Of a DNA stretch of 64,000 bases, positions 6,561 through 28,265 are shown in pieces. Positions within the stretch are counted from its first letter, which is position 1. Each line of letters begins with the position of its first letter. Location of the stretch: the sequence record DRR378314_1792, one strand, 5' to 3'. A model generated the notes under the pieces. That model saw only the letters and a list, made by a program, of their open reading frames with translations, searched no databases and had not been told where the DNA came from. The position numbers were made by a program, and so were the translations under genes.

Positions 6561-6644
6561 CGGCTGGCAACGATTTAGGAAAGCTTAAGGAAAAGGGCAT
6601 ATTGTACTTCCTGTATTTCACTTATCAGGAAGTCTACCCTGCCC

Positions 6645-8171: not shown

Positions 8172-8225
8172 TTTCCCAATCCTTTTTCTTGTGGTTTTCT
8201 TTTCCCTAGCACACATATGAGCTGC

Positions 8226-8254
8226 TTGACAAAAACTGCCTCACTTTCTACCAA
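8226..8254 (+). promoter_or_regulatory. Candidate sigma70 promoter for the methyltransferase-cyclase pair
   Basis: TTGACA-N17-TACCAA upstream of ATG 8290. Confidence 0.5.
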
Positions 8255-8289
8255 GCTTTCAGGCTTTGTGCATAAGGGTTATTGACCTC

Positions 8290-10540: not shown

Positions 10541-11725
10541 CTACTTATAGGGGTCCGCCGCGTCCCTGAGGCCATCACCCAGGAAGTTAAACGCCAGAAC
10601 AACAATAATAACAGGAACAACCGGATACATAAGCCAAGGGGTTGTCGCCACGGCATTAATATTCGTGGTCTCATTCAGCAACACCCCCCATGAGGTAATC
10701 GGTGGCCGCAAACCAAGCCCCAAAAAGGACAGTGCCGTCTCCCCAAGGATCATACTGGGAACGGCCAGACTGGCACTCGCGATCAAGTGAGACGCAAAAG
10801 AAGGGAGAAGATGTCGCCCAATAACCCGGCTTGGGCTCGCCCCCATCAACTGGGCTGCCGTTGTGAAATCCTCCTCTCGAAGAGAGAGGAATTTCGATCG
10901 AACCGCCCTTGCAAGCCCCGGCCAATCCAATAAACCCAGAATGACCGATAGACCGAAAAACACCCAAATGGGCGACCAGGTCACCGGTAATGCCGCCGAC
11001 AGCGCAAGCCACAACGGTAGCTGCGGCAAGGATTTCAAAAGCTCAATGGTTCGCTGGATGATGTTATCAATCCATCCGCCGTAATAACCGGATATCCCAC
11101 CTAACACAATTCCCAGTGTGAAACTGATGATAATACCGATCAGCCCGATCGTCAGGGAAATACGCGTCCCATATATAATCCGCGAGAAAATATCTCGACC
11201 TAACCGGTCAGTACCCAGCCAGAAAAAAGTCGCCCGGCGTTGATCATCAGCGCAAATCAGATGCGTATCGGCGTCGATCAGTCCCCACATCTTGTATTCA
11301 TCGCCGCCACAGAAATAGCGAAGGGTATAAATCCGGCTTTTATCAACGCGATATTCCCGTTGCAATGTCTCCAGATTCAATTTCTGCCGATATCCATAGA
11401 CAAACGGTGCCCGAAGCTCCCCTTCATGGAAAATATGAACGGATTGGGGCGGTGCAAAGATATTGCGCGTATTTCGGCTGTGCAGCTCATAAGGCGCCAG
11501 GAACTCAGCAAAGAGCGTAGAGAGATAAAACAGCAACAGAATGATACCGCTAATCACCGCAAGACGATGTCGGCAGAATTTCCACCACATCATCTTCCAC
11601 TGAGAAGCCATGTAGTATTTTTCCTGCTCCGGTGACAGTTTCTCAACGGAAAGTGGATCAAACGGCTCTTTGGAATGCCAGTGTTCTAAGCGGCCGTCCC
11701 GGCCATTATTAAACGACTCGCTCAT
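10541..11725 (-). CDS. Opp/Dpp-type ABC transporter permease (OppC-like)
   Basis: LGTDRLGRDIFSR, EAA loop (FTTAAQLMGAS), AFNFLGDGLRDAADP. Confidence 0.95.
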   Translation of the reverse strand: MSESFNNGRDGRLEHWHSKEPFDPLSVEKLSPEQEKYYMASQWKMMWWKFCRHRLAVISGIILLLFYLSTLFAEFLAPYELHSRNTRNIFAPPQSVHIFHEGELRAPFVYGYRQKLNLETLQREYRVDKSRIYTLRYFCGGDEYKMWGLIDADTHLICADDQRRATFFWLGTDRLGRDIFSRIIYGTRISLTIGLIGIIISFTLGIVLGGISGYYGGWIDNIIQRTIELLKSLPQLPLWLALSAALPVTWSPIWVFFGLSVILGLLDWPGLARAVRSKFLSLREEDFTTAAQLMGASPSRVIGRHLLPSFASHLIASASLAVPSMILGETALSFLGLGLRPPITSWGVLLNETTNINAVATTPWLMYPVVPVIIVVLAFNFLGDGLRDAADPYK

Positions 11726-12750
11726 TTAGTGGCCCCCCCGGTCAACCGAATTCTGGGATCAAGGACAGCCAGCAGCAGATCCGAAATAAACACGCCGATG
11801 ACAGTCAATAGAGCCAGGAACATCAAGAAAGATCCCGCCAAATACTGATCCTGACTGCGCAGCGCGTCCAGCAGCATTGGGCCCGCTGTCGGCAAGCTCA
11901 GCACAGCGCTTACTATCACAGACCCTGAGATCACGTCTGGTAGCAGATTTCCAATATCGGCAATAAAGGGATTTAGGGACATCCGGATAGGATATTTAAC
12001 CAATGCCCTGATTTTCGGCACCCCCTTAGCCTTAGCCGTCGTTACATATTGCTTTTGCAATTCATCAAGAAGATTGGCACGCAGCCGCCGGATCATCGCC
12101 GCTGTCCCACTGGTGCCGATCACAATGACCGGAATAATCATGTGATCCAGGACGGACAAAGCCTTATCGACACTCCATGGCTGATCCAGGTATTGTTCGT
12201 CCATCAATCCGCCGATGGACAGGCCGAAATAATAGTTGGCATAATAGAGCAACACCATGGCGAGCAGAAAGTTAGGCGTCGCCAGGCCCAGATATCCGAT
12301 CAGGGTAAATCCGTAATCTCCAATAGAATATTGTCGGGTTGCCGAATATACACCGATCGGAAACGCCACGATATATATGAATATGATGGTCGAAAAATTG
12401 ACCACGAAAGTCAGGAACATTCGATCGCCAAGGACTTCGGTGACAGGCAGATCATAAGCAAAACTATGTCCCCAATCCCCCTGCAGCAAACCTGAAAACC
12501 CATCGGGTCCCGGCCAAAAGCCCATCCAGATGGCATATTGTTCTATTAACGGTTTATCCAGCGAATATTGCTCCCGGAGGAACGTAATTTTGGCGGCCGC
12601 CGTTGCACTTTCCCCTTGCGCCTTCAATTCCTGAAGCTGGTTGGAAAGATAGTCGCCTGGCGGCAGCTGAATGATAATAAACGTCAAGATACTAACCACC
12701 AAAAGAGTGGGTATCATGATGAGCAGTCTCTGGATAAAGTAACTGAACAT
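11722..12750 (-). CDS. Opp/Dpp-type ABC transporter permease (OppB-like)
   Basis: GDWGHS, QYVTTAKAKG, DLLLAVLDPRIR. Confidence 0.95.
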   Translation of the reverse strand: MFSYFIQRLLIMIPTLLVVSILTFIIIQLPPGDYLSNQLQELKAQGESATAAAKITFLREQYSLDKPLIEQYAIWMGFWPGPDGFSGLLQGDWGHSFAYDLPVTEVLGDRMFLTFVVNFSTIIFIYIVAFPIGVYSATRQYSIGDYGFTLIGYLGLATPNFLLAMVLLYYANYYFGLSIGGLMDEQYLDQPWSVDKALSVLDHMIIPVIVIGTSGTAAMIRRLRANLLDELQKQYVTTAKAKGVPKIRALVKYPIRMSLNPFIADIGNLLPDVISGSVIVSAVLSLPTAGPMLLDALRSQDQYLAGSFLMFLALLTVIGVFISDLLLAVLDPRIRLTGGATK

Positions 12751-12765
12751 GCCTGTTAGATCCCC

Positions 12766-14664
12766 CTAGCCATCGGCCTTGAACCAGAACAGGTCTGGAT
12801 GGTACATACCAAAATGCGCGCCGGGGTCCCAATTAAAGATCGCCTTCTCGGGCACGTTCTGAAGCGTATCCATAACGACGATTGGGTGCAAAATCCCGCT
12901 GACCACCCCAATGGTAAATTGCTGATCGGCATGTATTGCCAGCATCTCTTTCCAGATACGGGTTCGCTCCGCGTCTGTCTTGGAAACCCGCCACTCCGTG
13001 TAAAGCTCATATAGGCGCTCTACCTCTGGCATATCGACAGGTTCACCGGATTTCCCTTTGGTTTCGTAATATTGACCCCATTTAGGCCACTGATACCCAA
13101 CTTGTGTGGTAGGGGCCAGCAAGGCTGGACTTGCACTGGGTGTCGCCACCCCATTTTCAAATCCAGACCACACTGAAATCAACGTCTCACCCGCGAAAAT
13201 TCGATTTCGAAAAATCGCTCTCTGAGAGGGTTTGGTATAAAGAGCGATCCCCACTTCTTTCCAGCTATCGCGGATCAATTCCAGCACATCGGTCTGTTCA
13301 GTGCTTTCACCTGCTGTTTCCACAATGATGGATAAAGGCGTGCCATCCTCCATTAACCGAATGCCATTATCATCCCGCTCCGTGAAACCGATTTCATCCA
13401 ACAGTGCGTTCGCCTTGTCAAAATCCAGATATGCCCACTCTTTCTGGAAGCGTTCTTCATACAGCTCGCTTTGCGTCTGAACCGTATTGTTCCCTTCTTT
13501 GGCCAACCCAAAAAACAGCACATCATTAACTTCCGCCCGGTCAATGGCGAGGGACAAGGCCCGGCGGAACCGGACATCCCGGATAAGCTTACGCCATTTA
13601 GGATCCACCACATTCAGATTAGGATACAGCACAAAGTGGGAGCCCCGTACAGTCGGCCACAACAACGTTTTATATTGTGATCGTTTTTCATTAGCCTTCA
13701 AGAAGGTCGCATCCTGCAACTTCAGGGCACGCGCCTGCAGGTCCACATCCCCCGAAGCGGCCTTGGCTGAAATCAATTTCGGCTCCGAAACAGAGAGAAT
13801 GACCCGGTCAATATAAGGCAGTTGGCGCCCGGCTTGATCTACCCGATGGAAATAGGGGTTTCGCTCTCCGACAAAGCGATTTGCCGGGGCCGAGGTCGTG
13901 TTCCGCCAGGGCTGCAGTGTGGGGAGATCCGGATTATCAAATTTATAAAGATTATCCAGCCGGTTATGTTGTGATGCCCAGGCCTTGAACTTGATCTTCT
14001 GGATCTTGTTCATCTTGGACTTATCCACATACCGATCATGGTAAGGCTTCAGATAGTGAGCTGGCCGATAGATCAATAAGGGTGCAGCGCTTGCAAGCAG
14101 GCTCAGAAAATCCGGATTGGGGCTGGACCATTCATACCGGACGGTCGTTGCATCGGGAAAAGAGACTTTCGGCGCTTCGCCATTCACTAAAAGGGTTGCT
14201 GGCGGACCCGTCGGCGACAGTTTTGAGTTATTCGCCACATCCTCCCACCAATATCTGAAATCCTCAGAGGTAAAAGGCGCGCCATCAGACCAGCGGTGAT
14301 TTTTGCGAAGCTTGAAGGTGAAAATCCGGTTTTCCTCAACTTCAAAACTCTCTGCAATATCCGGGACGATGCGCAAATCCGGCGTATAGGATACCAAACG
14401 GGCGTACCCATAGACGAACATCAGTTTTACATCTGCAGCATTACCGATCAGGCTATTCAAAGTCCCCCCATATTGCCCCAGCATCTGATCTTCGAAAAAG
14501 GGGAGGACCCTGGGCGTTTCCGGGAGCCGGTCTTGAACAGATGGCAAATCACCCGACTGAACTGCGGCGGCAAAATAAGGAACTTCCGGGATTTCATTGG
14601 CCAAAGATGGTTGGCTAAATCCCGAAAAACAGAATAAAAGTAGCAGGCAGATTAGGTTCTTCAT
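12766..14664 (-). CDS. Family 5 ABC substrate-binding protein
   Basis: Signal peptide; GDLPSVQDRLPETP, FKLRKNHRWSDGAPFTSED, RNPYF, FRRALSLAIDR. Confidence 0.93.
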   Translation of the reverse strand: MKNLICLLLLFCFSGFSQPSLANEIPEVPYFAAAVQSGDLPSVQDRLPETPRVLPFFEDQMLGQYGGTLNSLIGNAADVKLMFVYGYARLVSYTPDLRIVPDIAESFEVEENRIFTFKLRKNHRWSDGAPFTSEDFRYWWEDVANNSKLSPTGPPATLLVNGEAPKVSFPDATTVRYEWSSPNPDFLSLLASAAPLLIYRPAHYLKPYHDRYVDKSKMNKIQKIKFKAWASQHNRLDNLYKFDNPDLPTLQPWRNTTSAPANRFVGERNPYFHRVDQAGRQLPYIDRVILSVSEPKLISAKAASGDVDLQARALKLQDATFLKANEKRSQYKTLLWPTVRGSHFVLYPNLNVVDPKWRKLIRDVRFRRALSLAIDRAEVNDVLFFGLAKEGNNTVQTQSELYEERFQKEWAYLDFDKANALLDEIGFTERDDNGIRLMEDGTPLSIIVETAGESTEQTDVLELIRDSWKEVGIALYTKPSQRAIFRNRIFAGETLISVWSGFENGVATPSASPALLAPTTQVGYQWPKWGQYYETKGKSGEPVDMPEVERLYELYTEWRVSKTDAERTRIWKEMLAIHADQQFTIGVVSGILHPIVVMDTLQNVPEKAIFNWDPGAHFGMYHPDLFWFKADG

Positions 14665-16553
14665 GCTCTCAATTCCTCAATCGTTGTCCCTTCATGCACA
14701 CGGACAAAATGCCCGCTTCCCATATCAAGCATGAGGGGAGCTGCATCTTCACTGATTGTAAAGGGAGCTTCCCATGCCGCCGGATTGGATGCTTTTTCAG
14801 AAACCAAATGATCAAAATCGAGCCGATGCTCCGGATTGGGTTCAGGAACAGCAGCCAACAACCGTTTTGTATAAGGATGGATCGGATTTTTAAAAAGAAC
14901 ATCCTTTGGTGCCGTTTCAACCAAACGTCCCTGGCACATCACCGCAATACGATCAGCAATATAGTCCACAACTGCAAGATTATGGGAAATGAACAGATAT
15001 GTCAGGCCCAGCTCTTTTTGCAGATCTTTGAGCAAATTCAGTATTTGCGCCTGAATGGAAACATCAAGAGCCGAAACAGGTTCATCACAAATCAACAGAT
15101 CCGGTTTCAAGGCGAGGGCCCGTGCAATACCGATCCGTTGGCGCTGTCCCCCGGAAAAAGAATGGGGGTATCGGCGCAGGAACCGAACATCCAAGCCAAC
15201 CAGTTCCATCAATTCCTTAACAGTATCTTCCCGCTCTTTTTGCGTTCCAATCTTATGGATCACCAACGGCTCGGAAATAATATCGAAAACTGTCATGCGC
15301 GGATTTAAAGAGGAAAAGGGGTCCTGGAAAATGAACTGGACCTTGCTTCGATAATCAAAAAGCTGGGCCTGGTTCATATTCAGGACATTCAAATCCTGCC
15401 CCCGGTCATTATAGACCACCTCCCCGGAGGTCGCGCTAAGCGCCCTCAGGATCACTTTTGAAAGCGTTGTTTTTCCGCAGCCCGACTCGCCAACAAGCCC
15501 AAGGCACTCACCCGGGTTAATGAAAAAACTAACATGATCTACAGCCCGAATTGAACCACCGGGCTTATTACCAATTATAGTGGTTTTGCGGGTGTTAAAA
15601 TCTTTTGTCAGGTTTTTCACCGACAGGATAGGCTGACTTTCTGTACCCGCCATATCCCTGGGGTTGGCCTGCGCCAGAAACTTACTATCTGAATTACGGG
15701 TAATTTCACGGATCGGGGTCAACCGCTCCCCCTCCTGCATATCAAAGCGGGGAACTGCTTTGAGAAGCGCTTTCAGATAGGGATGGCTGGGGTCACGAAA
15801 AATATCTTCAAGCGTGCCCTGCTCCATGATTTTTCCGTGATACATGACGACAACTTCGTCGGCCATGCTGGCCACAACACCCAGATCATGGGTGATGAGC
15901 AAGATCGCCATTTGCAGCTTTTCCTGCAATTTTTGCATTAAATCCAGTATTTGCGCCTGGATGGTTACATCCAGCGCAGTTGTTGGCTCATCCGCGATCA
16001 ACAAAGCTGGATTGCAGATCATCGCCATGGCGATCATCGCCCGTTGACGCAACCCACCTGAAAGCTCAAACGGGTAGGTATTCACTGCGGCCTCAGGATC
16101 TGGAAATCCAACCAGACGCAGCATGTCGATTGTCAGCTCCCGCCCTTCTTCTTTTGTTTTCTTCTGGTGCAGATGAAGCGCTTCTGAGATTTGATTCCCG
16201 ATGGTATGCAAGGGGGACAGGGACGTCATCGGTTCCTGGAAAATAATGGTAATACGCCCACCGCGGATCTGCCGCATTTCCTTACTATCAGGCTTTAATC
16301 GGGCAATATCATAAAAATTACCTGGCTTGTCTGGATCGAAGAACAGAATTTCCCCATCCGTAATATGGGCAGATCTAGGGAGGATCGACATAATCGCCTG
16401 ACTAATGACAGATTTTCCAGATCCACTTTCCCCAACCAGAGCGACAGTTTTCCCCATGGGAACCCGAAAACTGACCCCATCGACAGCTTTTACAGTGCCT
16501 TCTGCAACACGAAATTCGATCTTAAGATCTCGAACAAGCAACACGTTGGACAT
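14661..16553 (-). CDS. ABC ATP-binding protein with two fused NBDs (OppD/OppF-like)
   Basis: Two Walker A ([16 protein letters not shown]), two signatures ([16 protein letters not shown]), ADEPT/CDEPV. Confidence 0.95.
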
Positions 16554-17095: not shown

Positions 17096-17881
17096 TTAGG
17101 TGTCGTCTTCCTCATCGAGGAGTTCATCAATGAGGGCCATAGCGCCCCTCAATGTCAGAAATCTTACGTTATTCTGACTATTCAGATATGACAAGAGCTT
17201 GAAAGTGATCGCCCATAAGCTTTCATCAAACATCAGATGATGGGTCAGCAACCCGGTTGGCTCGTTGACGTCCACCTCTTCGCACCGCCGAGCCTTCAGA
17301 TGACGAATGAGGTCCTGAAGAATGTCTTTCTCCGGCCGTGCGCTTCGATGACCTTTCCACAGCACCGGATCAACATGAGTATTTATCTCGGCCAGTCCGG
17401 GAAAAGGACAAGCAGCTTTTCTAGGCTGAAACCGGGAAAGCCCCGCAAACCCCAGCTTCTTTAAAGTTGGTAAATGAAGATCTGCAAAACGGTTCCATGG
17501 CGGAACAAAAAACGCGAAAAAATCATCAGCAAACAATTCTTCCATTCGATATTTGCCAACCCGAAGCTGATCTTCAACCTCCGCTGGGTCCCGGTTTACT
17601 GGAAATTCAGATTTTTTGGCCCCTTCGGCGGCAAAAGAATGATGGGTTACCCCATGCTGCACCAACTCACACCCCTCCAGCTCCGAGGCAATGCGGGGAT
17701 CCACGTTGTCCGGAATGGTGGCAAGGGTGAGAGGGATATCAAATTGATGGCGCAGATGCAGCAGCCGATCCAGCGCCTGCGTGGGCTCATTCAGGTCATC
17801 ATCCCGCCACCAGAAAGTGGCAATCTTTCCACTTTCAGCCCATGCGGCCAGTTCGGTATCCAGTTCATCCCAATCTGTCAT
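17096..17881 (-). CDS. Cytoplasmic NodB/CE4-like polysaccharide deacetylase
   Basis: FWWRDDD, QHGVTH, FVPPWN, LLTHH motifs; no signal peptide. Confidence 0.85.
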   Translation of the reverse strand: MTDWDELDTELAAWAESGKIATFWWRDDDLNEPTQALDRLLHLRHQFDIPLTLATIPDNVDPRIASELEGCELVQHGVTHHSFAAEGAKKSEFPVNRDPAEVEDQLRVGKYRMEELFADDFFAFFVPPWNRFADLHLPTLKKLGFAGLSRFQPRKAACPFPGLAEINTHVDPVLWKGHRSARPEKDILQDLIRHLKARRCEEVDVNEPTGLLTHHLMFDESLWAITFKLLSYLNSQNNVRFLTLRGAMALIDELLDEEDDT

Positions 17882-19038
17882 GCGCGCTCAGACAGCCATT
17901 GTCGCAACAAAGCGACCGTACTATCAGTTCCCGATACATCAATCTTGGCAAAGGCGGGAGGTCCATTATAGGCAAGATCGACTTTTTCCGCCAAGCTGGC
18001 AGGAGTTAAGCCGCCTTCCTCGGCAATTTGCAGCACGCCTTTAGCAGCCAGTAATTCCGCTCTCAAGGTCTGTTCGGTCTCCAAACCGCCGGCATAGGGA
18101 ACAATGACCGCGCGGCATTTGGCATGTAGGACTTCCATCACCGTATTATATCCCCCTTGAGAAATTGACAACGTACAGTTCATCAATAAAGTCGTAAAAT
18201 CTTTACGTGCCCGCTCAATAATAACGCCCGGCCCGGCCAGTTGTTCAAGCTCCTCGAACAACTCGTCTTCAACAGTCACCCCGACCATGCAGCGCCATGT
18301 TTTTTCGGCAAGAGAGGTGAGCGGTTTTGCAAGTATGGCCGTCTTCAAAAGGTGATGGCCAACGGCCCCACCGCCGCTAGAGACAATAACTTCCTCAAAG
18401 CCCGGCGCATCCGCGCCACCTTTAAGACCCGTTCGGTCCACCACATAGCCGGTGTAGAAGATCTGGTCTTTGATCGCTTCAGTATGAGGGAAAGTCCGAT
18501 CCAGGGAAATCAGGTTTGGATCACCATGCACCAGCACCTTATCAAAATAGGTCCGAACCAGATCCAGCATTTCATCATTGCGGCCCGGTTTGGTCTGGGC
18601 GACAAGAATATCCCGCACCGATGATAAAATCAGTGGCGGCTTTGCTGCAGATTTCGCGGCCTCTAGCAGTGGTAAAAGCTCAAACCGCATCTGACGGCGA
18701 CCGAAGGGGAAAAGTTCTGTGATCAGTACGTCCGGTTTGACACGGTTATACACCTCCAAAAGCCGGGCAGCGCGCATTTCCCGCCAACTGTCATCAATGG
18801 CATTGCCGTCTTCATCCACAAGCTGTTTAAAAAAAAGATCTGTCGCGCGGGTTGCCGGCAGCTGGACAATTTCGGCGCCTTGCAAATCAATATTTATAGG
18901 ATGGCCGCCCGAGACAACCGTAACCTCAAATCCTGCACGCACAAGGTTTCGAGCCAATGTCACGGTTCGGCGTAAGTGGCCAATTCCCAGCAGATGCTGA
19001 ACATAAAAGAGAACTTTAGGTGCCGTGTTTTGTTCCAT
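17878..19038 (-). CDS. GT-B glycosyltransferase (GT28/GT1-like)
   Basis: YVQHLLGIGHL, ELFPFGR, SQGGYNTVME, EQTLRA; start ATG 19038 overlaps upstream stop (TAATG). Confidence 0.88.
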   Translation of the reverse strand: MEQNTAPKVLFYVQHLLGIGHLRRTVTLARNLVRAGFEVTVVSGGHPINIDLQGAEIVQLPATRATDLFFKQLVDEDGNAIDDSWREMRAARLLEVYNRVKPDVLITELFPFGRRQMRFELLPLLEAAKSAAKPPLILSSVRDILVAQTKPGRNDEMLDLVRTYFDKVLVHGDPNLISLDRTFPHTEAIKDQIFYTGYVVDRTGLKGGADAPGFEEVIVSSGGGAVGHHLLKTAILAKPLTSLAEKTWRCMVGVTVEDELFEELEQLAGPGVIIERARKDFTTLLMNCTLSISQGGYNTVMEVLHAKCRAVIVPYAGGLETEQTLRAELLAAKGVLQIAEEGGLTPASLAEKVDLAYNGPPAFAKIDVSGTDSTVALLRQWLSERA

Positions 19039-19619
19039 TATGGCTTTTCCAATCGTATGTTTGGCCGTTCTGCTGTTGGCTGTCCATCTTTGCCAATGAA
19101 AAACAGATGGGCAGCTTCCCACTGATACGCAACCGGCAACTCGTTCTTCATATCCCAATTGTAAGCCAGTGACTGCATCGCCCTCATAACACCTTTATGT
19201 GTTACTGCGATAGTCGGCGACTTTAATTCGGTTAAAAAGGATAACAAGCGCTCTCTTACATGGCGGGGCGACTCCCCTTTCGGGGGTTTCATATCCAAAC
19301 CTAGGCTTTCATTCTGTATCATTTCGCCTCCGAAATGAGCGCGAAGGTCTTTTATCGTATGACCTTCCCAAAGACCGAAGTCCATCTCGATCAACCGATC
19401 GTCAAGGTCTATCTCCTTTGCCCCCAATAACTGGGCGGTCTGAACGGCGCGTTTCAGCGGACTACTAACCCAGTTATACTCCTGAAATTCCTGTGGAATC
19501 TGACATTTCTGAAGGTTTGAAACGCCCTTGGGACACAATGGAATGTCACGGCGCCCCTGCAATTTCTTGGCTAGGTTCCACTCCGTTTTACCATGCCGGA
19601 TCAACACTAATGGGATCAT
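19038..19619 (-). CDS. Histidine phosphatase (phosphoglycerate mutase superfamily)
   Basis: LIRHGKTEWN, SSPLKRA, EMDFGLWEG, VTHKG. Confidence 0.92.
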   Translation of the reverse strand: MIPLVLIRHGKTEWNLAKKLQGRRDIPLCPKGVSNLQKCQIPQEFQEYNWVSSPLKRAVQTAQLLGAKEIDLDDRLIEMDFGLWEGHTIKDLRAHFGGEMIQNESLGLDMKPPKGESPRHVRERLLSFLTELKSPTIAVTHKGVMRAMQSLAYNWDMKNELPVAYQWEAAHLFFIGKDGQPTAERPNIRLEKP

Positions 19620-20749
19620 TGGCCCAATCCCTGCAGATGGGTATTCAATAATACAGATGCCGCCTGTAGGCTGCGTTCTTTTTGCACAAAAAGGGTGGCT
19701 TGTTCAGACAAACGGTTCACTTCATCCGGGTTTTTCTGCAAGGACATAATCTGTTCCGCCATGGCTTTCATGTCCCCTTCAGCCACAAGGTATCCCGTAT
19801 GACCATCCTGAACCACATCCGGGACACCTCGAACACGCCCTGCAATCACAGGCGTTCCTGCCCACTCAGCTTCCAGCAAAGCCATTCCATACGCCTCCCC
19901 GCAAGCGGGCCAAACATATAAGTCTGCGCCTTCGTAAAGCGCTGCCAAATCCGCCCCATCGCGCCGACCCAGGTAGCAGACACGGTCTCCGTATGATTTG
20001 AAAAGGGTTTTGACCTTTGCTTCGCACTCTCCATCACCGACAATAATCAGTTTCCAGCCAGCAGGCGGCAGAAAGGACAGCATTTCAGCCAATTGTGTAT
20101 AGGAGTTCATCTTATCACCGGGACGCATCATGGCCACGGTCAAGAGTTTGAGATCCGGCGTATTGATATCTGCTGATGACAAGGCTGTCACAATATCCGA
20201 AGAAACCGTTTCATTCAGACTTTCTGCAGGTTTCATAAATGGTGGCATTTTCACCAGCTTATCGGCGTTCCAAACAAGATCCTTCAAACAATTGCCGTCC
20301 AGATCTGTCATATAAAACACCCGATCAGCGCCCCGAATAGCTTGCGCAGCAGCTTCATACCCCAACGCCCAGGCCCCATCGGCCTGCTTGGGAGCATGGC
20401 TGGCTTCTGCAACGACATAAGGAATACCAAGCGCCTTTGAAACCAAAGGGCCGATCCAGTCTGGCGCTTTATGGTAGACATGATACGTAAACCACAGATC
20501 CGGTTTTACCTTGTCAGGATCCGCGTTAAATTCATTGAGAATTCGAACGACCTCTGCGGCGGCTTGATCCCGAAGCTGACCTTGAAGTTCCAAGTCGCCC
20601 TTCTTGTCATAAGATCTGTGATCTGACGCCAGATACACTTCATGGCCCGCAAGGCTCAATGCTTCCATAAAGAGCCGGGCAACCCGTCGATCCCCAGAAG
20701 GAATCACATGAGTAGGGGCTTTCAAGGGTGCATAAAACGCAATTCTCAT
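19616..20749 (-). CDS. GT4-family glycosyltransferase
   Basis: MRIAFYAPLK start (ATGA overlap), SGDR, EAYGMALLE (EX7E). Confidence 0.9.
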   Translation of the reverse strand: MRIAFYAPLKAPTHVIPSGDRRVARLFMEALSLAGHEVYLASDHRSYDKKGDLELQGQLRDQAAAEVVRILNEFNADPDKVKPDLWFTYHVYHKAPDWIGPLVSKALGIPYVVAEASHAPKQADGAWALGYEAAAQAIRGADRVFYMTDLDGNCLKDLVWNADKLVKMPPFMKPAESLNETVSSDIVTALSSADINTPDLKLLTVAMMRPGDKMNSYTQLAEMLSFLPPAGWKLIIVGDGECEAKVKTLFKSYGDRVCYLGRRDGADLAALYEGADLYVWPACGEAYGMALLEAEWAGTPVIAGRVRGVPDVVQDGHTGYLVAEGDMKAMAEQIMSLQKNPDEVNRLSEQATLFVQKERSLQAASVLLNTHLQGLGQ

Positions 20750-21999
20750 GAGCTGACTTCTTTTGGGAATTTCTTGGAAAGCGTTGTAATCCATGTTTCC
20801 GCATTAAATTCAGACCTTAATTTGTCAAAACCCTTCTCACTCAGTCGGATCCGCAAATCAGGGTTCCTAATCAAACTTTCCAACGCCAAAGACAGTTCCT
20901 CCGGCGAGTTTTGCGAGACAAGTAAACCGGTTTGATTATCGATAATCAACTCTGGAATAGCAGACACGGAGGTTGCCACAATCGCCGCCTTTTGACTTTG
21001 TGCTTCCATCAAGACATTTGGCAAACCATCGCGATCTCCGTCATCTGCAATTCGGCTGGCCAGAACAAAAATATCTGCCGAATTCATTGCCGCTTTTACC
21101 TCGGCCTGTGATTGTGGCCCCATCCAGTGACAACGATCCGCATAGGCGGAGATGGCGGCTTGCCCCTTCAACCCCTCTAAAAGGGGTCCACCACCAATAT
21201 GCGTAAACTCCCAATTCAGATCCTTTGGCAATCGAGCCAAGGCCCCCAGAACATCATCATAGCCTTTTTTCTCAACCGCCCTGCCCACGGACAAAATCTG
21301 TACCGGTTTTTCCGCATCGGACCCGGTGTGCTGATGAGGTTCGCGCTGAGTATCTTCAAACCGGCTCAAATCCAGTCCATGATACAGCAGCTCGATCTTG
21401 GTCGGATCAGCTGCCATCTGCCGCAAATGATCCACGTTAAAAGCCGTGCAGGTAACCAGCCAACTGACGTCTGACAGTTTCTCCTGAATTTCCCAGTCGG
21501 GCGATGTGTAAATATCCTTTGCATGCGCAGAGCAGCTCCACGGCAGATCAAGGCAAAAAGCCGTATATCTGGCAACTGAAGCCGGCGTATGTAGAAAATG
21601 CGCATATATCCTATCACTATTTTCCGGAAACTCAGCAGCCAGCACCATGGCCTGCCCAAACCGGCGAAACCGGTTGCGGCTAAAGTCCCGAACCAAATCC
21701 CGACGCCAGGTTCGAAAGGCCTTTTTATACCCCAACAGCTTTCGCGTCCTCCACCAGCCTTTGAAAACCCGGATCGGTTCCTGATGCAGATATTCAGGCA
21801 GGTAAGTCACAGGGGCTTGCATTTCTTGATGTATGGGATGGGTTTTCTTATCCGTGGGAAAGCGCAACGAGATCAAGTGCAATTTATGGCCCAGCTTTTC
21901 CAGCGCCCGAAGCTCCTGGGCGATGAAGGTTTCTGACAATCGGGGATATCCCTTCAGAACCACTGTGATTACCGGACCCGTTTTCTCTTTCTGCTGCAT
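20746..21999 (-). CDS. GT4-family glycosyltransferase (WcaL-like)
   Basis: YPRLSETFI, SAHAKDIY, SVGRAVEKKG, DGLPNVLME; start 21999 or 22023. Confidence 0.9.
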   Translation of the reverse strand: MQQKEKTGPVITVVLKGYPRLSETFIAQELRALEKLGHKLHLISLRFPTDKKTHPIHQEMQAPVTYLPEYLHQEPIRVFKGWWRTRKLLGYKKAFRTWRRDLVRDFSRNRFRRFGQAMVLAAEFPENSDRIYAHFLHTPASVARYTAFCLDLPWSCSAHAKDIYTSPDWEIQEKLSDVSWLVTCTAFNVDHLRQMAADPTKIELLYHGLDLSRFEDTQREPHQHTGSDAEKPVQILSVGRAVEKKGYDDVLGALARLPKDLNWEFTHIGGGPLLEGLKGQAAISAYADRCHWMGPQSQAEVKAAMNSADIFVLASRIADDGDRDGLPNVLMEAQSQKAAIVATSVSAIPELIIDNQTGLLVSQNSPEELSLALESLIRNPDLRIRLSEKGFDKLRSEFNAETWITTLSKKFPKEVSS

Positions 22000-22218
22000 C
22001 AAAGTTTCGTTCCACAAGATCAAAAATTTGTAGTAGGGGGTGTATTTCCGAATTTCAACCTAACATTTAAAAAAAGGGGACGTGACATCTTTCCCCAAAT
22101 CCCTCAAAAAGGGTTTTCTAATAAAATTTGGTCCTTGCTTGCGTTATGAGAAATGTGAAAAAGTGGCGCGGGAGCAATAATTTGACATATGTCTGGGCGG
22201 CAAGGCAGGTCTCACTGC

Positions 22219-24870
22219 ATGGAACATAGTATTTACAAATACATTCTGCGCCATAGTAAAAAGCAGCAGATTATCCTATTACTTATGTCCATCGGATCTT
22301 TTCCGTTCCTATATTACTATCTTGAACTTCCCAAAATCATCATTGATCAGGCGATCCAGGCAAAAGATATCGTCTTTCCTGTTGAGTTTATGGGTATCGC
22401 CATTGATCAGCAGGAATTTCTCTATGTGACTGTCGGTATCTTTCTGGTACTGGTCATCATCAATCAGAGCTTTAAATACGCGATTAATGTCTATCAGGGC
22501 ATCACGGGGGAGCGTATGCTGCGCCGGATGCGCTATGAACTTTATAGCCGTATTCTCCGCTTCCCACTGCCCATATTTCGAAAAAAGAGTTCTGGTGAAA
22601 TCATCCCGATGATCACCTCTGAAGTGGAACCCCTTGGTGGTTTTATCGGGGAGGCCTTTGTCTTACCGGTTTTTCAAGGCGGATATCTGCTGGTGATCAT
22701 GAGTTTTTTGCTCATTCAAAATGTGTATATGGCACTTGCTGCCATTGCCCTCTATCCCCTGCAGGCCTATTTCATTCCGAAAATGCAGCGGATCGTAAAC
22801 CAGCTTGGAAAAGAGAGAGTTCAGCGGGTTCGGGTCCTTTCCGATAAAATCGGTGAGACAGTGGCCGGTATCCAGGAAATTCATATTCACGATACATCCA
22901 ATCTGCTACGAGCTGACTTCACCAACCAACTGGGCCGTATATATTTTATCCGCTACCGGATCTATTTGCTGAAGTTCATTATCAAGTTCCTGAATAACTT
23001 TATTCAACAACTGGGGCCATTCTTTTTCTACGCCATCGGCGGCACCATGGTCATTGCTGGCACCCTGGAAATTGGCACATTGGTGGCGGCCATTACAGCT
23101 CATAAAGAAATGGCGGCTCCGTGGAAAGAGCTACTTGCTTATTATCAACGACGTGAAGACGCCCGGATCAAATATCAACAGGTCGTGGAACAGTTTGAAC
23201 CCGCCGGCATCCGAGATGACAAGTACCAGATGGACGAGCCGGATCCCATGCCACACCTGTCTGGAGAACTGGTCGGCTCAAACCTGATCTTGTCCGATGA
23301 CACGGGCTCCGCCCAACTTGAAGGGCTGAATATTCGCGGAGATTTGAAACAGAAACTGGCGATTGTGGGTGCTGCTGGCTCTGGCCGTGACGCATTGACC
23401 AAAATTATAGCTCGCTTGATTGATCCTGATCGCGGAAAACTTAGTGTTGGAACAATCGACCTGCTGACTGCCCCTCAATCTCTGACCGGACGGCGCATCT
23501 CCTATCTGGGGCAAAGCGGATATGTGTTTAATAGCTCAATCGGGGATAATCTGTTTTTCGGGCTGAAGCATCGCCCCCTACGGGAAGTCGACCTGGAGGA
23601 TGAGGACGAGGTTGATTTTCTGAAAAGAGATCGACCGGAAATCGAAATTACCTCGAACAGCCCCTTTTCTGTCCGGGCGGACTGGATCGATTTTGACAGT
23701 GCTGGTGTTTCAACCCTCGATGAACTGGATGCCCGGGCCATCGATATTTTGCAGATGGTAGAGCTGGGCGATGATGTTTATCAATTTGGCCTCAGAAGTA
23801 CGCTCGATCCAAAAGAAGACAGCGAAGTTGCATCCCTGATCCTGACAGCGCGGCGGCGGTTTTTCGAAAAACTGGAAGCTGACCCGGCTCTTAAAAACCT
23901 GGTTGAGGCGTTCGAGGAAGATCAATACAACACTAACGCCACTCTGGGTGAAAACCTGCTCTTTGGAACTCCAGTAGGCAACAGCTTTGATATGGAGCGG
24001 CTTGCTGAAAATTCCTACGTGCAGAAGGTGATTGACGAAGCCAACCTGACCACGGCTTTCCTCAACATGGGCTATCAGGTTGCAACCTTAATGGTTGAAC
24101 TTTTCGCCGATTTGCCCCCTGAACACGAATTTTTCCAGCAATATGGCTTTATTTCATCAGAAGAGCTTCCGGACTATCAGGCCATTCTGTCTCGGGTGAA
24201 CCCCGACAACCTGGATCAACTGCGCGAGGAAGACCGGCTTCGGTTTATGTCTCTTCCCTTCAAAGTCATTCCATCCCGCCATCGTCTAGGCGTGATTACC
24301 GACGAAATTCAAGACAAAATTGTCCTCGCCCGTAAACAGTTCATCGATCACCTGCCTGAACATCTCCACGGCAAAATCGAATTTTTCGATTCAGACGCCT
24401 ACAACACAGCCGCCAATATTCAGGATAATATCCTGTTTGGCAAAATTGCCTATGGCTACGCCCAGGCCAATGAAAAAATTGGCGCCCTTCTGGCAGAAGT
24501 CGTGGCTGAAATGGATCTGAAACGGTCTATCATTAAAGTTGGTCTGAATTTTAACGTCGGTTCAGGCGGTGCACGGCTCAGTGAAAATCAACGCCAGAAA
24601 CTGTGTATTGCCCGGGCCATTATCAAAAAACCGGATCTGTTGGTCCTGAACCAGGCAACAGCATCTCTGGACTCCAGATCTCAACAACGCATTCTGGAAA
24701 ATATTCTATCGGAATTTGAAGACCGAGCCGTAATCTGGTCTCTGGACAAGCCTGAGATGGCCTATCTATTTGACCAGGTTCATTACATTGCAGGCGGCCT
24801 GATCATGGATACAGGTTCTTTCGAAGATCTGAAAAGCCGAAATGAACAATTCAAATCGCTGATCAGCTAG
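22219..24870 (+). CDS. Fused ABC exporter-type permease plus degenerate, expanded ATPase domain
   Basis: N-terminal ABC_membrane domain (~6 TM); Walker A-like GAAGSGRD, signature-like LSENQRQK, Walker B-like LLVLNQAT; start 22219 or 22189. Confidence 0.88.
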   Translation: MEHSIYKYILRHSKKQQIILLLMSIGSFPFLYYYLELPKIIIDQAIQAKDIVFPVEFMGIAIDQQEFLYVTVGIFLVLVIINQSFKYAINVYQGITGERMLRRMRYELYSRILRFPLPIFRKKSSGEIIPMITSEVEPLGGFIGEAFVLPVFQGGYLLVIMSFLLIQNVYMALAAIALYPLQAYFIPKMQRIVNQLGKERVQRVRVLSDKIGETVAGIQEIHIHDTSNLLRADFTNQLGRIYFIRYRIYLLKFIIKFLNNFIQQLGPFFFYAIGGTMVIAGTLEIGTLVAAITAHKEMAAPWKELLAYYQRREDARIKYQQVVEQFEPAGIRDDKYQMDEPDPMPHLSGELVGSNLILSDDTGSAQLEGLNIRGDLKQKLAIVGAAGSGRDALTKIIARLIDPDRGKLSVGTIDLLTAPQSLTGRRISYLGQSGYVFNSSIGDNLFFGLKHRPLREVDLEDEDEVDFLKRDRPEIEITSNSPFSVRADWIDFDSAGVSTLDELDARAIDILQMVELGDDVYQFGLRSTLDPKEDSEVASLILTARRRFFEKLEADPALKNLVEAFEEDQYNTNATLGENLLFGTPVGNSFDMERLAENSYVQKVIDEANLTTAFLNMGYQVATLMVELFADLPPEHEFFQQYGFISSEELPDYQAILSRVNPDNLDQLREEDRLRFMSLPFKVIPSRHRLGVITDEIQDKIVLARKQFIDHLPEHLHGKIEFFDSDAYNTAANIQDNILFGKIAYGYAQANEKIGALLAEVVAEMDLKRSIIKVGLNFNVGSGGARLSENQRQKLCIARAIIKKPDLLVLNQATASLDSRSQQRILENILSEFEDRAVIWSLDKPEMAYLFDQVHYIAGGLIMDTGSFEDLKSRNEQFKSLIS

Positions 24871-24896: not shown

Positions 24897-25364
24897 ATGA
24901 CTTTACGAGAAGAAGTCGAAACACTCAGGCAAATTCCACTCTTTGCAAAAGTTGACCCATCCAAAATCAAGTTACTCGCCTTTACTGCCGAACGGCTAAC
25001 CTTTCAGCCGGGGGATCTCCTATGCAAGCAAGGTGAAATGGGTGATGCGGCCTATGTCATCATTAATGGTAAAGCTGACGTGGTGATCGACACACCGACA
25101 GGCCCGATCACGGTTGCAACCATGCATAAAAACGACGTGGTCGGAGAAATTGCCATTTTGATCAATATTCCCCGAACCGCAACGATTAAAGCTGCCTCTG
25201 AATTGACAACATTGCGGATCACGAAAGATCTGTTCCTGCGGACCATTACAGAATTCCCGGAAATGTCGATTGAAATGATGCGGGTCCTTGCAGATCGCCT
25301 GGTAAAAACCACCGAAGAACTCCAAAAAGCCAAAGAAAGCCTTCGAAAAGAAACTGGTCAGTGA
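24897..25364 (+). CDS. Stand-alone cyclic nucleotide-binding domain protein
   Basis: IPLF, QGEMGD, phosphate-binding cassette VGEIAILINIPRTATIKA; no HTH; AGGAG RBS. Confidence 0.92.
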   Translation: MTLREEVETLRQIPLFAKVDPSKIKLLAFTAERLTFQPGDLLCKQGEMGDAAYVIINGKADVVIDTPTGPITVATMHKNDVVGEIAILINIPRTATIKAASELTTLRITKDLFLRTITEFPEMSIEMMRVLADRLVKTTEELQKAKESLRKETGQ

Positions 25365-25406: not shown

Positions 25407-26720
25407 TTGCTCATTCGCCGCTGGCTTGAAGCCGCATCGATCTACAAAGATCCCCGTGTTCTTGCAATTCTGTTCCTTGGATTTTCATCCGGCCTGCCAT
25501 TGGCGCTAACGGGAACAACCCTCGCTCTTTGGTTACGCGAAGAAGGCTTGACCCTGACCTCCATTGGCCTTTTTGCCAATGTGGCAACACCCTATGCGCT
25601 GAAATTCCTCTGGGCGCCGTTAATCGACAAATTGCCAGTTCCTGTTTTAACCCGCCTTGTCGGCCGGCGGCGAGGGTGGATGATCCTGACGCAAATATGT
25701 TTGATGGCGTCAATCGTTGGGATGGGATCGGTTAATCCAAATACGCATATTGAACTAACCGCATTATTTGCATTTCTGGTCGCATTTTCCTCTGCCAGTC
25801 AGGATATTGTAATAGATGCTTATCGGGTTGAAATATCAGATGAAAAGAGCATGGCAGCCGGGGCTGCCGCCATTGTATTCGGCTATAGAATTGGCATGCT
25901 TGTCTCTGGCGCAGGAGCGCTCTATCTAGCATCAGTCGTGAGTTGGCAGCTCACGTTTACGGTTATGGCCGCCCTGATGTTGATCGGTATGATTACGATC
26001 ATGATTGCCGGTGAACCGACGACAAAAGTAGCGGTAGATCCTGCGGTGAGCAAAAGTTCAGTCCGGGATTTCAATACTTACCTGACCTGGATCCGCGAAG
26101 CTGTTATTGATCCGTTCAGCGAATTTCTGGGTCGCAAAGGGTGGCTTCCAATCCTTCTATTTGTGGTGTTTTACAAATTTGGCGACAGCCTTGCCGGCGT
26201 CATGAGCACCCCTTTCTTTTACGATCTTGGGTTTACTAAAATCGAAATTGCAAATGTCAGCAAGATCTATGGAACCGCTGCCACCTTTATCGGCCTTGCT
26301 TTGGGTGGCTGGTTGATGGCCGCCACAGGACTTTATAAGACCTTATGGATTTGCGGATTTCTACAATTGGGATCCAATTTGATGTTTGCCTTGCAGGCGA
26401 TGGCTGGAAATGATGTCAGCGTACTTGCTTTAACCGTAGGAGTTGAAAATCTTTCGGGTGGCATGGGCACAGCTGCCTTTGTGGCATATCTGTCCAGCCT
26501 GTGTAATGTCGCTTTCACAGCAACTCAATATGCCCTCCTTTCCTCCTTTATGGCGACGGCCCGGATCTGGTTCTCCTCCCCCGGGGGCTGGCTCGCGGAA
26601 CAGCTGGGATGGATACAGTTTTTTATGACAACAGTGCTGGCCGCACTCCCCGGTCTAGTGCTATTATGGTGGCTAACACGTTCAATAAATCCGACAAAAT
26701 CCGATCAGACCCAATTATAA
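25407..26720 (+). CDS. ampG: AmpG-family muropeptide MFS permease
   Basis: LGFSSGLP, KFLWAPLID, GRRRGW, SASQDIVIDAYR, ATQYALLSS. Confidence 0.92.
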   Translation: MLIRRWLEAASIYKDPRVLAILFLGFSSGLPLALTGTTLALWLREEGLTLTSIGLFANVATPYALKFLWAPLIDKLPVPVLTRLVGRRRGWMILTQICLMASIVGMGSVNPNTHIELTALFAFLVAFSSASQDIVIDAYRVEISDEKSMAAGAAAIVFGYRIGMLVSGAGALYLASVVSWQLTFTVMAALMLIGMITIMIAGEPTTKVAVDPAVSKSSVRDFNTYLTWIREAVIDPFSEFLGRKGWLPILLFVVFYKFGDSLAGVMSTPFFYDLGFTKIEIANVSKIYGTAATFIGLALGGWLMAATGLYKTLWICGFLQLGSNLMFALQAMAGNDVSVLALTVGVENLSGGMGTAAFVAYLSSLCNVAFTATQYALLSSFMATARIWFSSPGGWLAEQLGWIQFFMTTVLAALPGLVLLWWLTRSINPTKSDQTQL

Positions 26721-26759: not shown

Positions 26760-28265
26760 ATGAATATCGCAAATATACTGGCGCGAACGTCACGCTCTTT
26801 TTCCGAGTATCCAGCGCTTGCCTATGGCAATGAAATTGTGGCGAATTATGCAGAATTCGAACAAAAATCTGCGGCGTTGGCAGCCACTCTGAAAACCGAA
26901 TATGGCCTTCAAACCGGTGATCGGGTGGCGTTGATCATGAAAAACCATCCTGATTACTGGATTTGCTTGTTTGCAGTCTGGCATGCCGGGTTGGTTGCCG
27001 TTCCTGTTAATGCCAAACTTCACCTGACTGAGTTTCAGTATATTCTCGACAATTCAGAAAGCCGATTGTGTTTTGCGACACCGGAGCTGGCCGATCAATT
27101 GCAGTCCCTACAAAATGCCCCGCCAGTCATCAATATTGCAGATGCAAATTTCAACGATGCTTTACAGAGCACTCCCATACCGATGCAAGATCGGGCACCG
27201 GATGATCTGGCCTGGCTTTTTTATACTTCCGGCACGACAGGAAAACCCAAAGGGGCCATGATCAGCCACCGGAATCTGCTTTGTGCGATTACCAGCTATT
27301 TTTCCGATGTGACGGCAATCAACCCTGGCGATGCGGTCATCCATTCGGCACCCCAAACCCATGGCTCCGGCCTTTATGGACTACCGCTGATCGCGAAAGC
27401 CGGGATTCAGGTCACCCCGGTAAGCGGCGGATTTGACCCGGCGGAAACCTTCGGATTAATTGCCAGATACCCCAATTCCTGTTTTTTCTTTGCCCCGACA
27501 ATGATCCACCGGCTGATTACGTCCGAGGCCATAAAAACAGCCGACACCAGCCAATTGAAGCTGATTGTCTATGGCGGCGGGCCCATGTATGAAGCGGATA
27601 TCCGGGCAGCCCTGGACGCCCTCGGCCCTAAATTCTGCCAAATTTATGGACAGGGCGAAGCACCAATGACCATTACGGCCTTAAGCCAGTGGGAACTATC
27701 TGAAAATACGGATCATCCCAACCGTGCTGACCGGCTCGCCTCTGTTGGGTTGGAACGCACGGATGTAGAGGTTCGGATTGTTGATGAAAATGGAGAGGAA
27801 GTTGCGACTGGCGATGTCGGCGAAATCATCGTTCGTGGTGATGTGGTTATGCTCGGCTATTGGAAGAACCCTGGCGCCACCCAAGACACCATCCGGGATG
27901 GCTGGCTGTACACCGGAGACATGGGCGCCCGGGATGAAGATGGTTTTATCACGTTAAAAGACCGCTCCAAGGATGTGATTATTTCCGGTGGCACCAACAT
28001 ATACCCTCGTGAGGTGGAGGAAGTATTGCTCACCCATCCCGCCGTCGACGAAGTTTCTGTCGTTGGCCGTCATCATGTTGAATGGGGTGAAGAGGTCGTT
28101 GCATTCGTCGTGGCCGACAAGTCCCTGACAACTCAGGAGTTGGACGCCCATTGTGTTGAACATATGGCCCGGTTCAAACGGCCAAAAGAATATATTTTTA
28201 AAGATGAGCTGCCGAAAAACAACTACGGCAAAGTCCTGAAAACCGAGCTGCGACAAGAATTGTAA
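26760..28265 (+). CDS. AMP-binding acyl-CoA synthetase
   Basis: YTSGTTGKPKG, YGQGE, GWLYTGD, LPKNNYGK. Confidence 0.93.
   Translation: MNIANILARTSRSFSEYPALAYGNEIVANYAEFEQKSAALAATLKTEYGLQTGDRVALIMKNHPDYWICLFAVWHAGLVAVPVNAKLHLTEFQYILDNSESRLCFATPELADQLQSLQNAPPVINIADANFNDALQSTPIPMQDRAPDDLAWLFYTSGTTGKPKGAMISHRNLLCAITSYFSDVTAINPGDAVIHSAPQTHGSGLYGLPLIAKAGIQVTPVSGGFDPAETFGLIARYPNSCFFFAPTMIHRLITSEAIKTADTSQLKLIVYGGGPMYEADIRAALDALGPKFCQIYGQGEAPMTITALSQWELSENTDHPNRADRLASVGLERTDVEVRIVDENGEEVATGDVGEIIVRGDVVMLGYWKNPGATQDTIRDGWLYTGDMGARDEDGFITLKDRSKDVIISGGTNIYPREVEEVLLTHPAVDEVSVVGRHHVEWGEEVVAFVVADKSLTTQELDAHCVEHMARFKRPKEYIFKDELPKNNYGKVLKTELRQEL

Follow-up and report, generated by a model that had tools for sequence, protein, structure and literature searches.

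ABC (ATP-binding cassette) exporters are defined by ATP-powered alternating access, and known exceptions such as CFTR and SUR keep one working ATP site. What would a protein of this fold be for if most of its ATPase motifs had been replaced? The locus that raises this question lies in a 64,000-nucleotide stretch of sequence record DRR378314_1792 (the window), a core chromosomal segment from a Sneathiella-like alphaproteobacterium: the top protein match is to S. limimaris (92% identity), and housekeeping genes surround the locus (hisA/F/B, hslUV, mutS, glnD, murJ, nusA and infB). One of its genes encodes P0001, an ABC-exporter-fold protein that the initial annotation described as a probably dead ATPase acting as a sensor, scaffold or channel instead of a pump. 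We put the probability at roughly one half that P0001 is the membrane subunit of a cyclic-nucleotide-controlled ABC-exporter-fold protein that is no longer run by ATP hydrolysis.

Counted from the first ATG of its open reading frame (ORF), the P0001 gene spans 22189..24870 on the plus strand and encodes 893 aa. In most relatives the protein starts opposite residue 11 of the query, which makes M11 (22219) the probable start and gives an 883-aa protein. The coordinates first assigned to it, 23360-24870, covered the nucleotide-binding half, but the gene itself starts at one of these two upstream positions. Pfam finds ABC_membrane at residues 74-303 (84.5 bits, cut-off 28), an ABC_tran match broken into two pieces (53 bits, cut-off 25), and nothing beyond these two. 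The AlphaFold2 (AF2) model, built with 97 relatives, has a mean predicted local distance difference test score (pLDDT) of 92.2 and a predicted TM-score of 0.89, and its best Foldseek matches in the PDB are TmrAB, PCAT1, HlyB, P-gp and a cyclic-glucan transporter (E ~1e-17). On this model, P0001 is a type IV (exporter-type) ABC fold, a six-helix transmembrane domain (TMD) followed by a nucleotide-binding domain (NBD) in one polypeptide. Pfam and AF2 give the same layout of one TMD and one NBD-like domain: the TMD comprises six long helices at residues ~30-336 (22276..23196, plus strand), and the NBD-like domain takes up residues ~355-893 (23251..24867, plus strand). Among the NCBIfam exporter families (HepA, MsbA, CydC/D and the bacteriocin/type I secretion ABC families), P0001 falls under every curated cut-off, the top match, to the HepA family, reaching 161.7 bits against a cut-off of 725 and the MsbA match 149.8 against 602. 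In the ESM Atlas the only matches were ABC clusters with generic names, and our literature search found no description of the family, nor is there mention of it in the accessible parts of PMC2246266, PMC10127613 and PMC12239276.

The motifs picked out by the initial annotation are all present at homologous positions, as judged by a HMMER alignment of P0001 to ABCB4 and other solved exporters (E 6e-32); because of this alignment we regard them as true counterparts of the ABC motifs and not as chance strings. In place of GxxGxGK[ST], the Walker A segment reads GAAGSGRD (residues 394-401; 23368-23391; this and the following positions are on the plus strand) and aligns on GSSGCGKS, with Arg for the Lys and Asp for the Mg-binding Ser/Thr. 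The signature, LSENQ (residues 797-801; 24577-24591), aligns on LSGGQ with Glu-Asn for Gly-Gly, and Walker B, LLVLNQ (residues 817-822; 24637-24654), aligns on ILLLDE, with Asn-Gln where the hhhhD stretch and the catalytic Glu would put Asp-Glu. In the H-loop region, WSLDK (residues 850-854; 24736-24750), the string AVIWSLDK aligns on TTIVIAHR and Asp853 takes the position of the switch His. The A-loop Tyr position, likewise, is Asp370. The claim that every catalytic motif deviates therefore holds for Walker A and B, the signature, the H-loop and also the A-loop, but it does not hold for the Q-loop Gln (Q442 in YLGQSG; 23512-23514) or the D-loop (ASLD, D828), which are both retained. The best-scoring PDB sequence is an ABCB4 entry with DQ at Walker B, the Gln standing at the catalytic-Glu position; we take this entry to be an engineered Glu-to-Gln trap mutant, and its sister entry has Glu. 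P0001 naturally has Gln there, and replacing this Glu by Gln is the usual way to block hydrolysis in ABC proteins. Judged from these motifs, ATP hydrolysis by P0001 looks very unlikely.

An alignment of orthologues had been proposed as the way to see whether this degeneracy is conserved. In an alignment of P0001 and 150 cluster representatives (clusters at 50% identity; sequence identity 32-56%; 17 rows shorter than 800 aa included), not one of the 151 sequences has the complete catalytic set of six canonical residues. None retains even five: 42 sequences have none of the six, 52 have one, 35 have two, 14 have three and 8 have four. The canonical residue is in the minority at every catalytic position, with the Walker A Lys in 54 sequences (Arg in 52, Ala in 22), the Walker A Ser/Thr in 38 (Asp/Glu in 65), the Q-loop Gln in 14, the Walker B Asp in 43 (Asn in 68) and the catalytic Glu in 32. 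The A-loop Tyr column is Asp/Glu in 90/151, and both Gly positions of the signature vary freely across the family. The Sinorhizobium orthologue, from S. meliloti, is more degenerate still, reading GGTSGGGE (with no basic residue), LTSGQ and FYVFNQ.

The NBD of P0001 also contains an insertion of ~300 residues (residues ~467-772; 23587..24504, plus strand) between the Q-loop and the X-loop/signature, which separates the two halves of the Pfam and NCBIfam NBD match. The insertion consists of two extra copies of the NBD's own Q-loop/helical-subdomain segment, so that the helical subdomain is triplicated. The three modules cover about residues 425-545, 546-705 and 706-800, each with an 'NxLFG' motif, and the copies of the post-Q-loop motif read GDNLFFG at 452, GENLLFG at 587 and QDNILFG at 745. 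A BLASTP self-comparison of the NBD found no internal repeat, and profile-profile comparison was needed to reveal the modules: hhalign of the sub-alignments gave a probability of 99.3% for module 2 against module 3 (E 3e-20, 82 columns), 92.9% for module 1 against 3 (E 3.8e-7) and 87% for module 1 against 2 (E 3.8e-6). These modules hold some of the most conserved residues outside the TMD, with R555 and N589 invariant and R715, N747, G751, F592 and G593 at least 90% conserved. Folded alone, the insertion is modeled with a pLDDT of 82.5, and a Foldseek search with it against the PDB gave 0 matches at E<=0.001 (best E 0.16, TM-score <=0.17).

Only 26 bp downstream of the P0001 gene lies a gene for a stand-alone cyclic nucleoside monophosphate (cNMP)-binding protein of 155 aa (24897..25364, plus strand), which we propose to be the regulatory subunit; no terminator-like site was seen between the two genes. 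Its Pfam cNMP_binding match is strong (E 2.3e-17; 63.2 bits, cut-off 27.5), and the phosphate-binding cassette expected of a cyclic-nucleotide-binding (CNB) domain, GEIAILINIPRTAT, is intact, with G83, A86, R93, T94 and A95 invariant in 40 stand-alone relatives. We rejected the label of CRP/FNR transcription factor for this protein: at 155 aa it has no domain beyond cNMP_binding and no helix-turn-helix, and its NCBIfam match to CRP, at 35 bits (cut-off 266), extends over positions 17-137 of a 214-position profile.

Elsewhere in the family, the same domain is part of the ABC-like protein itself. All 30 scanned relatives of more than 1000 aa carry a C-terminal cNMP_binding domain, and a hidden Markov model (HMM) of the stand-alone protein found a fused domain in 45 of the 150 representatives, including all 44 of those of at least 990 aa; G83 is kept in 44 and R93 in 42 of these 45 fused domains. 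With the same HMM, none of 121 close relatives of P0001 has a fused domain, and they have a separate gene instead wherever context is available. By these profile matches, the gene at 24897-25364 is the split form of the domain that is fused elsewhere in the family. The fused state changes at least seven times on a FastTree phylogeny of 130 full-length members from which the fused-domain columns were excluded. Of the 10 genome loci that include downstream DNA, 8 have a separate cNMP gene after the ABC gene; the two without it are L011 and L013, and L007, L010 and L012 end too early for this check. S. meliloti and R. lusitanum show the same arrangement.

We modeled the complex of P0001's NBD (residues 340-893) with the cNMP protein and obtained a score of 0.65. 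Among solved complexes 51 of 78 attain this mark, as do 2 of 108 mismatched pairs; the best of three controls scored 0.01. At least 97% of contacts are shared between runs, and the pLDDT of the partner is at least 81. On the ABC side, the predicted interface falls on the insertion (residues 567, 634-652, 698-701 and 755-759), and on the cNMP side it is an N-terminal patch that includes the invariant residues K25, L26, F29 and R33. The ABC-side segments MVELFADLPPxHEFFQ, SRHRLGV and KIAYGYAQA are near-identical in loci with a cNMP gene and differ in L011 and L013. Taken together, P0001 and the cNMP protein appear to work together. The sensing role once proposed for P0001 thus survives, but shifted to the adjacent cNMP protein, whose domain is fused in a third of the family and whose docking on the insertion is predicted.

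Two further observations concern cyclic-nucleotide signalling. About 12 kb upstream of the ABC/cNMP pair, the window contains a gene for a 449-aa protein with a class III adenylate/guanylate cyclase domain (9183-10532, plus strand; Guanylate_cyc E 2.6e-12), a candidate local source of cyclic nucleotide. Also, in two family members, P0139 (1156 aa) and P0153 (1206 aa), the fused cNMP domain is followed by a GGDEF-like domain that takes up the C-terminal ~150-200 residues. We considered these tails as a signalling output and rejected the idea: the GG[DE]EF motif is missing, and the added domain looks non-catalytic.

In the scheme we favor, P0001 would form a homodimer, as other half-transporters do, and the cNMP protein would dock on the inserted modules. 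Binding of cAMP or cGMP, in place of the ATP hydrolysis cycle, would set the association of the two NBD-like domains, and the signal would pass to the TMD through the retained X-loop (G791, G794) and coupling-helix contacts, so that a pathway is opened or closed. More speculatively, that pathway could pass or flip a glycoside or glycolipid made by the neighboring GT4 and GT28-like enzymes across the inner membrane, and the driving force could be the substrate's own gradient or coupling to the membrane potential. The full version of this scheme, in which the cyclic nucleotide replaces ATP as the NBD-closing ligand and the docked CNB domain gates a homodimeric TMD that serves as a channel or flippase for a glycoconjugate without ATP hydrolysis, is a tentative proposal, and one that we think has rather less than an even chance of being right.

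Several observations weigh against a cyclic-nucleotide-controlled protein that has given up ATP hydrolysis. The verdict of a dead ATPase is read from the motifs alone, and three distant members among the 151 retain both the Lys-Ser and the Asp-Glu pairs. The docking was predicted without alignments and with three controls, its score is the model's own confidence, and 7 of 44 blind neighbor pairs passed the same mark. L011 and L013 have no cNMP gene or domain, showing that cNMP control is not family-wide; as these are also the most distant orthologues, the correlation between the interface segments and the presence of the partner is confounded with phylogenetic distance. PDB matches of the two GT4 proteins are generic for GT4 enzymes (BshA, MshA-like, PimA/B). 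Homodimerization, gating, cargo and direction are the parts of the scheme that we infer or that are speculative. Finally, conservation of the nucleotide pocket among close relatives has to be reckoned with. In the 121 nearest relatives (at least 53% identity), the P-loop follows GxxGSG[KR][DE], with G394 in 121/121, G399 in 118, K/R400 in 120 and D/E401 in 119. The D-loop Asp is present in 120/121, the catalytic Glu in 71/121 (Gln in 45) and a His at position 853 in 60/121. By these frequencies the pocket is under selection, and it may have kept the ability to bind a nucleotide or some other phosphate ligand.

The last point leads to the first alternative: that the pocket is remodelled, not dead, and still binds nucleotide, possibly with altered metal coordination, making P0001 an ATP-gated or slowly hydrolysing exporter for which the cNMP protein is a mere modulator. 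In this same close set, the Walker B Asp is found in 0/121 (Asn in 58, Ser in 45), and because the strict P-loop is combined with a Walker B Asp that is never present, the pocket resembles a remodelled ligand pocket and not the product of free decay. The signature Gln, in 118/121, adds to the D-loop Asp as a further conserved element, the Q-loop Gln, in 71/121 of the close set, is retained in P0001, and among the 151 representatives an acidic residue at 401 goes with Asn or Ser at 821 (37:11 against 34:32; Fisher p 0.006, uncorrected for phylogeny). The description of P0001 as probably dead is supported by its replaced residues, as far as sequence can tell, but with the close set in view the word calls for qualification. 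Against a working pocket, P0001 also lacks the catalytic Glu, the switch His, the signature glycines and the A-loop aromatic residue; its Glu-to-Gln change is the one used to block hydrolysis; and in the wider family the residues vary freely, with Ala for the Walker A Lys in 22/151 and GGTSGGGE in S. meliloti. Weighing these, we consider an ATP-gated or slowly hydrolysing exporter unlikely. As a separate observation, Walker B seems to have given up its acidic residue (position 821) and the Walker A Ser/Thr position to have gained one (401), a shift that may reflect a remodelled metal/nucleotide site.

A second alternative, that P0001 does not transport but is an anchor, scaffold or sensor for the neighboring glycosyltransferases (GTs), or a membrane signal relay, under cNMP control, would explain why GT genes are conserved alongside it and would fit the loss of the energy source; the two members with GGDEF-like tails also have a signalling-type architecture, but those tails lack the GG[DE]EF motif. 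The pattern of conservation argues against it. Over the 151 sequences, the mean frequency of the top residue is 0.45-0.69 in the TMD against 0.31-0.49 in the NBD, making the TMD the best-conserved part of the family. Ten columns are invariant; P160, P197, R215, R255, G284, G285 and P311 lie in the TMD and G416 just after it, and the polar TMD positions Q177, Q192, K262, K266, N269 and N270 are invariant or nearly so. The conserved membrane-embedded residues (Q177, Q192, N269, N270, P197, P277, G284, G285 and P311) are polar or helix-breaking, and a translocation pathway therefore fits them better than a passive anchor does. Pairwise comparison of P0001 with five Sneathiella-like orthologues gives a similar ranking: the TMD shows a non-synonymous divergence (dN) of 0.06-0.12, compared with 0.11-0.23 in the insertion and 0.15-0.26 in the two core lobes of the NBD. 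Synonymous sites are saturated in all five comparisons, and in four of them the former catalytic lobes change faster than the insertion. We therefore judge a purely non-transporting role improbable, about as much so as a working pocket.

A third alternative makes P0001 half of a heterodimeric, ATP-driven exporter, with the gene for the active partner at some other place in the genome. Heterodimers with a single degenerate site are a common kind of exporter, and two of them, TmrAB and TM287/288, rank high in the fold search; our own search for a partner was confined to the 64-kb window, the flanks of related loci and the rhizobial neighborhoods. Known heterodimeric exporters, however, are encoded by adjacent genes, and tblastn with P0001 of the window and of the flanks of 13 related loci found no second exporter-type gene, which bears out the initial annotation's remark that no partner half-transporter lies nearby; in the window, the only matches were weak ones to canonical NBDs, those of the Opp-type importer ATPase (14661-16553), and there is no exporter paralogue beside the S. 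meliloti or R. lusitanum orthologues. Moreover, in a head-to-tail NBD dimer each composite site takes its Walker/H-loop half from one domain and its signature half from the other, and because both of these halves are non-canonical in P0001, even a canonical partner would be expected to leave neither site consensus. Such a heterodimer thus has only a slim chance of being the answer.

A decaying relic of an exporter, to which the many lost catalytic residues and the frameshift in the S. meliloti 1021 orthologue might point, is effectively refuted by conservation: the reading frame is intact at 73-92% identity across Sneathiella with dN of 0.06-0.26 at saturated synonymous sites, the family has 930 clusters at E<=1e-30 (hundreds of them of full-length relatives, and nearly all of the best 150 aligning end to end), the AF2 model is confident, and three further strains of S. 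meliloti have an unbroken copy. By this comparison of sequences, the gene is under purifying selection and is not decaying.

Turning to the neighborhood, we compared 13 genome loci plus plasmid records of S. meliloti and R. lusitanum. In the window, a divergent set of glycoconjugate genes, annotated from Pfam and NCBIfam, occupies 17096..22023 on the minus strand: two GT4 enzymes (20746-22023 and 19616-20794), a histidine phosphatase (19038-19619), a GT28-like glycosyltransferase (17878-19158) and a deacetylase-like protein (17096-17881), all on that strand. A PDB sequence search with the GT28-like protein gave no match. Two pairs of these minus-strand ORFs overlap, GT28-like with histidine phosphatase by 121 nt (19038-19158) and GT4 with GT4 by 49 nt (20746-20794); probably either upstream TTG starts were called too early or the genes are translationally coupled. 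By tblastn, L001-L009, with identities as low as 47%, retain these glycoconjugate genes next to the ABC gene. The divergent promoter region of 165 bp showed no CRP-type palindrome when inspected by eye, with no formal scan, and a sigma-70 scan was at background (6 sites against 7.5 expected).

Beyond the glycoconjugate genes, also on the minus strand and again annotated from Pfam and NCBIfam, lies an Opp/Dpp-type importer (10541..16553) made up of two permeases, an SBP_bac_5 binding protein and a fused double ATPase. OppDF adjoins the ABC module in L001-L007 (tblastn), and an Opp-type importer stands beside the GT/ABC-like/cNMP module from Sneathiella to the Rhizobiaceae (L001-L007, L015 and L018). 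Its persistence there hints at re-uptake of something related to what the cluster makes. On the other side, the cNMP gene is followed on the plus strand by genes for an AmpG-family major facilitator superfamily transporter (25407-26720; TIGR00901, 513.6 bits against a cut-off of 350) and an acyl-CoA synthetase (26760-28265), probably in the same operon as the ABC/cNMP pair. These two genes follow the cNMP gene solely in the Sneathiella-like loci L001, L002, L004, L005 and L006 and are absent after the pair in L008, L009, S. meliloti and R. lusitanum; they are clade-specific neighbors outside the conserved core.

Searching plasmid and chromid records with tblastn placed orthologues on S. meliloti pSymB (~842-844 kb, NC_003078.1) and on a chromid of R. 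lusitanum. The rhizobial modules consist of an Opp-type binding protein and permeases, then GT28-like, GT4, GT28-like, methyltransferase, ABC-like, cNMP and methyltransferase genes, with 903 or 904 aa for the ABC-like gene and 154 or 161 aa for the cNMP gene. In S. meliloti 1021 (L014, NC_003078.1), a run near position 7928 has eight C against seven in strain R14, splitting the orthologue into ORFs of 237 and 762 aa. The frame is intact, at 922 codons, in the three other strains compared, R14, Rm41 and USDA1021 (L015, L016 and L017), and the split in 1021 has two candidate explanations, a genuine homopolymer frameshift in this laboratory strain or a mistake in the old sequence. In L009, too, at about 7413-7416, the orthologue runs over two frames (two tblastn pieces; ORFs 6037-7584 and 7503-8729), which reflects a frameshift or an assembly error in a metagenome-assembled genome. 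L004 (JBALWO010000011.1) is labelled 'Pseudomonas marincola', has a Sneathiella-like gene order and 77% identity to P0001, and is probably mis-binned or mislabelled. The most distant orthologues, at 41-42% identity (L011, 89-2083, and L013, 4145-5848, both on the minus strand), have no cNMP gene or GT cluster nearby, and upstream of each, in divergent orientation, lies a gene for a PDZ-domain protease of the DegP/HtrA type, which suggests another setting for that branch, possibly envelope stress.

How does P0001 compare with known systems? By analogy, it would work most like CFTR or SUR combined with the C-terminal ligand domains of importer ATPases, and it is a member of none of these groups. 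The likeness to CFTR (ABCC7) lies in an ABC-exporter fold used as a gated pathway instead of a pump, a degenerate ATP site and a link of activity to cAMP. CFTR is a single polypeptide of two TMDs and two NBDs in which one ATPase site is still consensus; its gating depends on ATP binding, and cAMP acts on it indirectly, through phosphorylation of its R domain by protein kinase A. In P0001, by contrast, no consensus site can form, and the cNMP-binding module is predicted to dock directly or, in relatives, is fused. SUR1 and SUR2 (ABCC8/9) offer a precedent for the exporter fold as a regulatory nucleotide sensor, and structures of SUR2B/KATP are among the fold matches of P0001. SUR is eukaryotic, regulates a separate Kir6 pore, and binds Mg-nucleotide and hydrolyzes it at one site, whereas no channel partner gene was seen at the P0001 locus. 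Neither protein's TMD1-NBD1-TMD2-NBD2 arrangement, with an R domain or a TMD0, is found in P0001. The closest solved folds are those of TM287/288 and TmrAB (target-normalized TM-score 0.57-0.64), which have non-canonical Walker B, H-loop or signature residues too. Each of these comes from two neighboring genes and has one consensus site left, whereas P0001 is a single gene in which both site halves deviate, with a 300-residue insertion and a cNMP partner.

Transport by SbmA and BacA is proton-coupled. In the accessible part of the source, these SLiPT proteins are described as homodimeric transporters (PMC12912959). They are a precedent for an exporter-like TMD homodimer that transports without ATP, but they have no NBD at all, whereas P0001 keeps a large NBD-derived domain. 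In MetN (the C2 domain), ModC and MalK, a small-ligand-binding domain that is C-terminal on the NBD controls NBD closure. There the ATPase is that of an active importer, and the domain binds regulatory proteins or the solute being transported; in the P0001 family, a CNB fold is instead found on a non-catalytic exporter-type NBD, with predicted docking on an inserted helical platform. A census of CNB domains includes a family 16, 'AAA_Atpase', of CNB domains on ABC-transporter-like proteins (Kannan et al. 2007, PMC2246266). In the part of that paper available to us, the cassette arginine of family 16 is variable, with the motif GEMALLSGQERKASVIA, whereas it is invariant in the P0001 partner (GEIAxxxxxPRTAT), and there is nothing on degenerate ATPase motifs or an NBD insertion.

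S. meliloti also has MsbA2 (SMb21191), a GT-linked ABC exporter encoded on pSymB that, according to the accessible parts of two papers, is thought to export an unknown polysaccharide and whose absence does harm only in the presence of intact upstream GT genes (PMC3687685, PMC12239276). We considered and rejected the idea that the S. meliloti orthologue of P0001 is msbA2: the two have separate positions on pSymB, with SMb21188 of the msbA2 locus at 938 kb in the portion of PMC3687685 available to us and the P0001 orthologue at ~842-844 kb.

A widespread bacterial family in which no sampled member has a complete catalytic set, although its membrane domain is highly conserved and a cAMP/cGMP sensor is fused to it or predicted to dock on it, would be a natural experiment on the ABC fold minus its motor. 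If P0001 is indeed controlled by a cyclic nucleotide, it would be a new type of cyclic-nucleotide effector in the alphaproteobacteria, where many cyclases have no known targets. The S. meliloti module on pSymB, with its GT4, GT28-like and Opp-type genes, makes the question testable in a genetic model, and the module may point to an uncharacterized envelope or secreted glycoconjugate.

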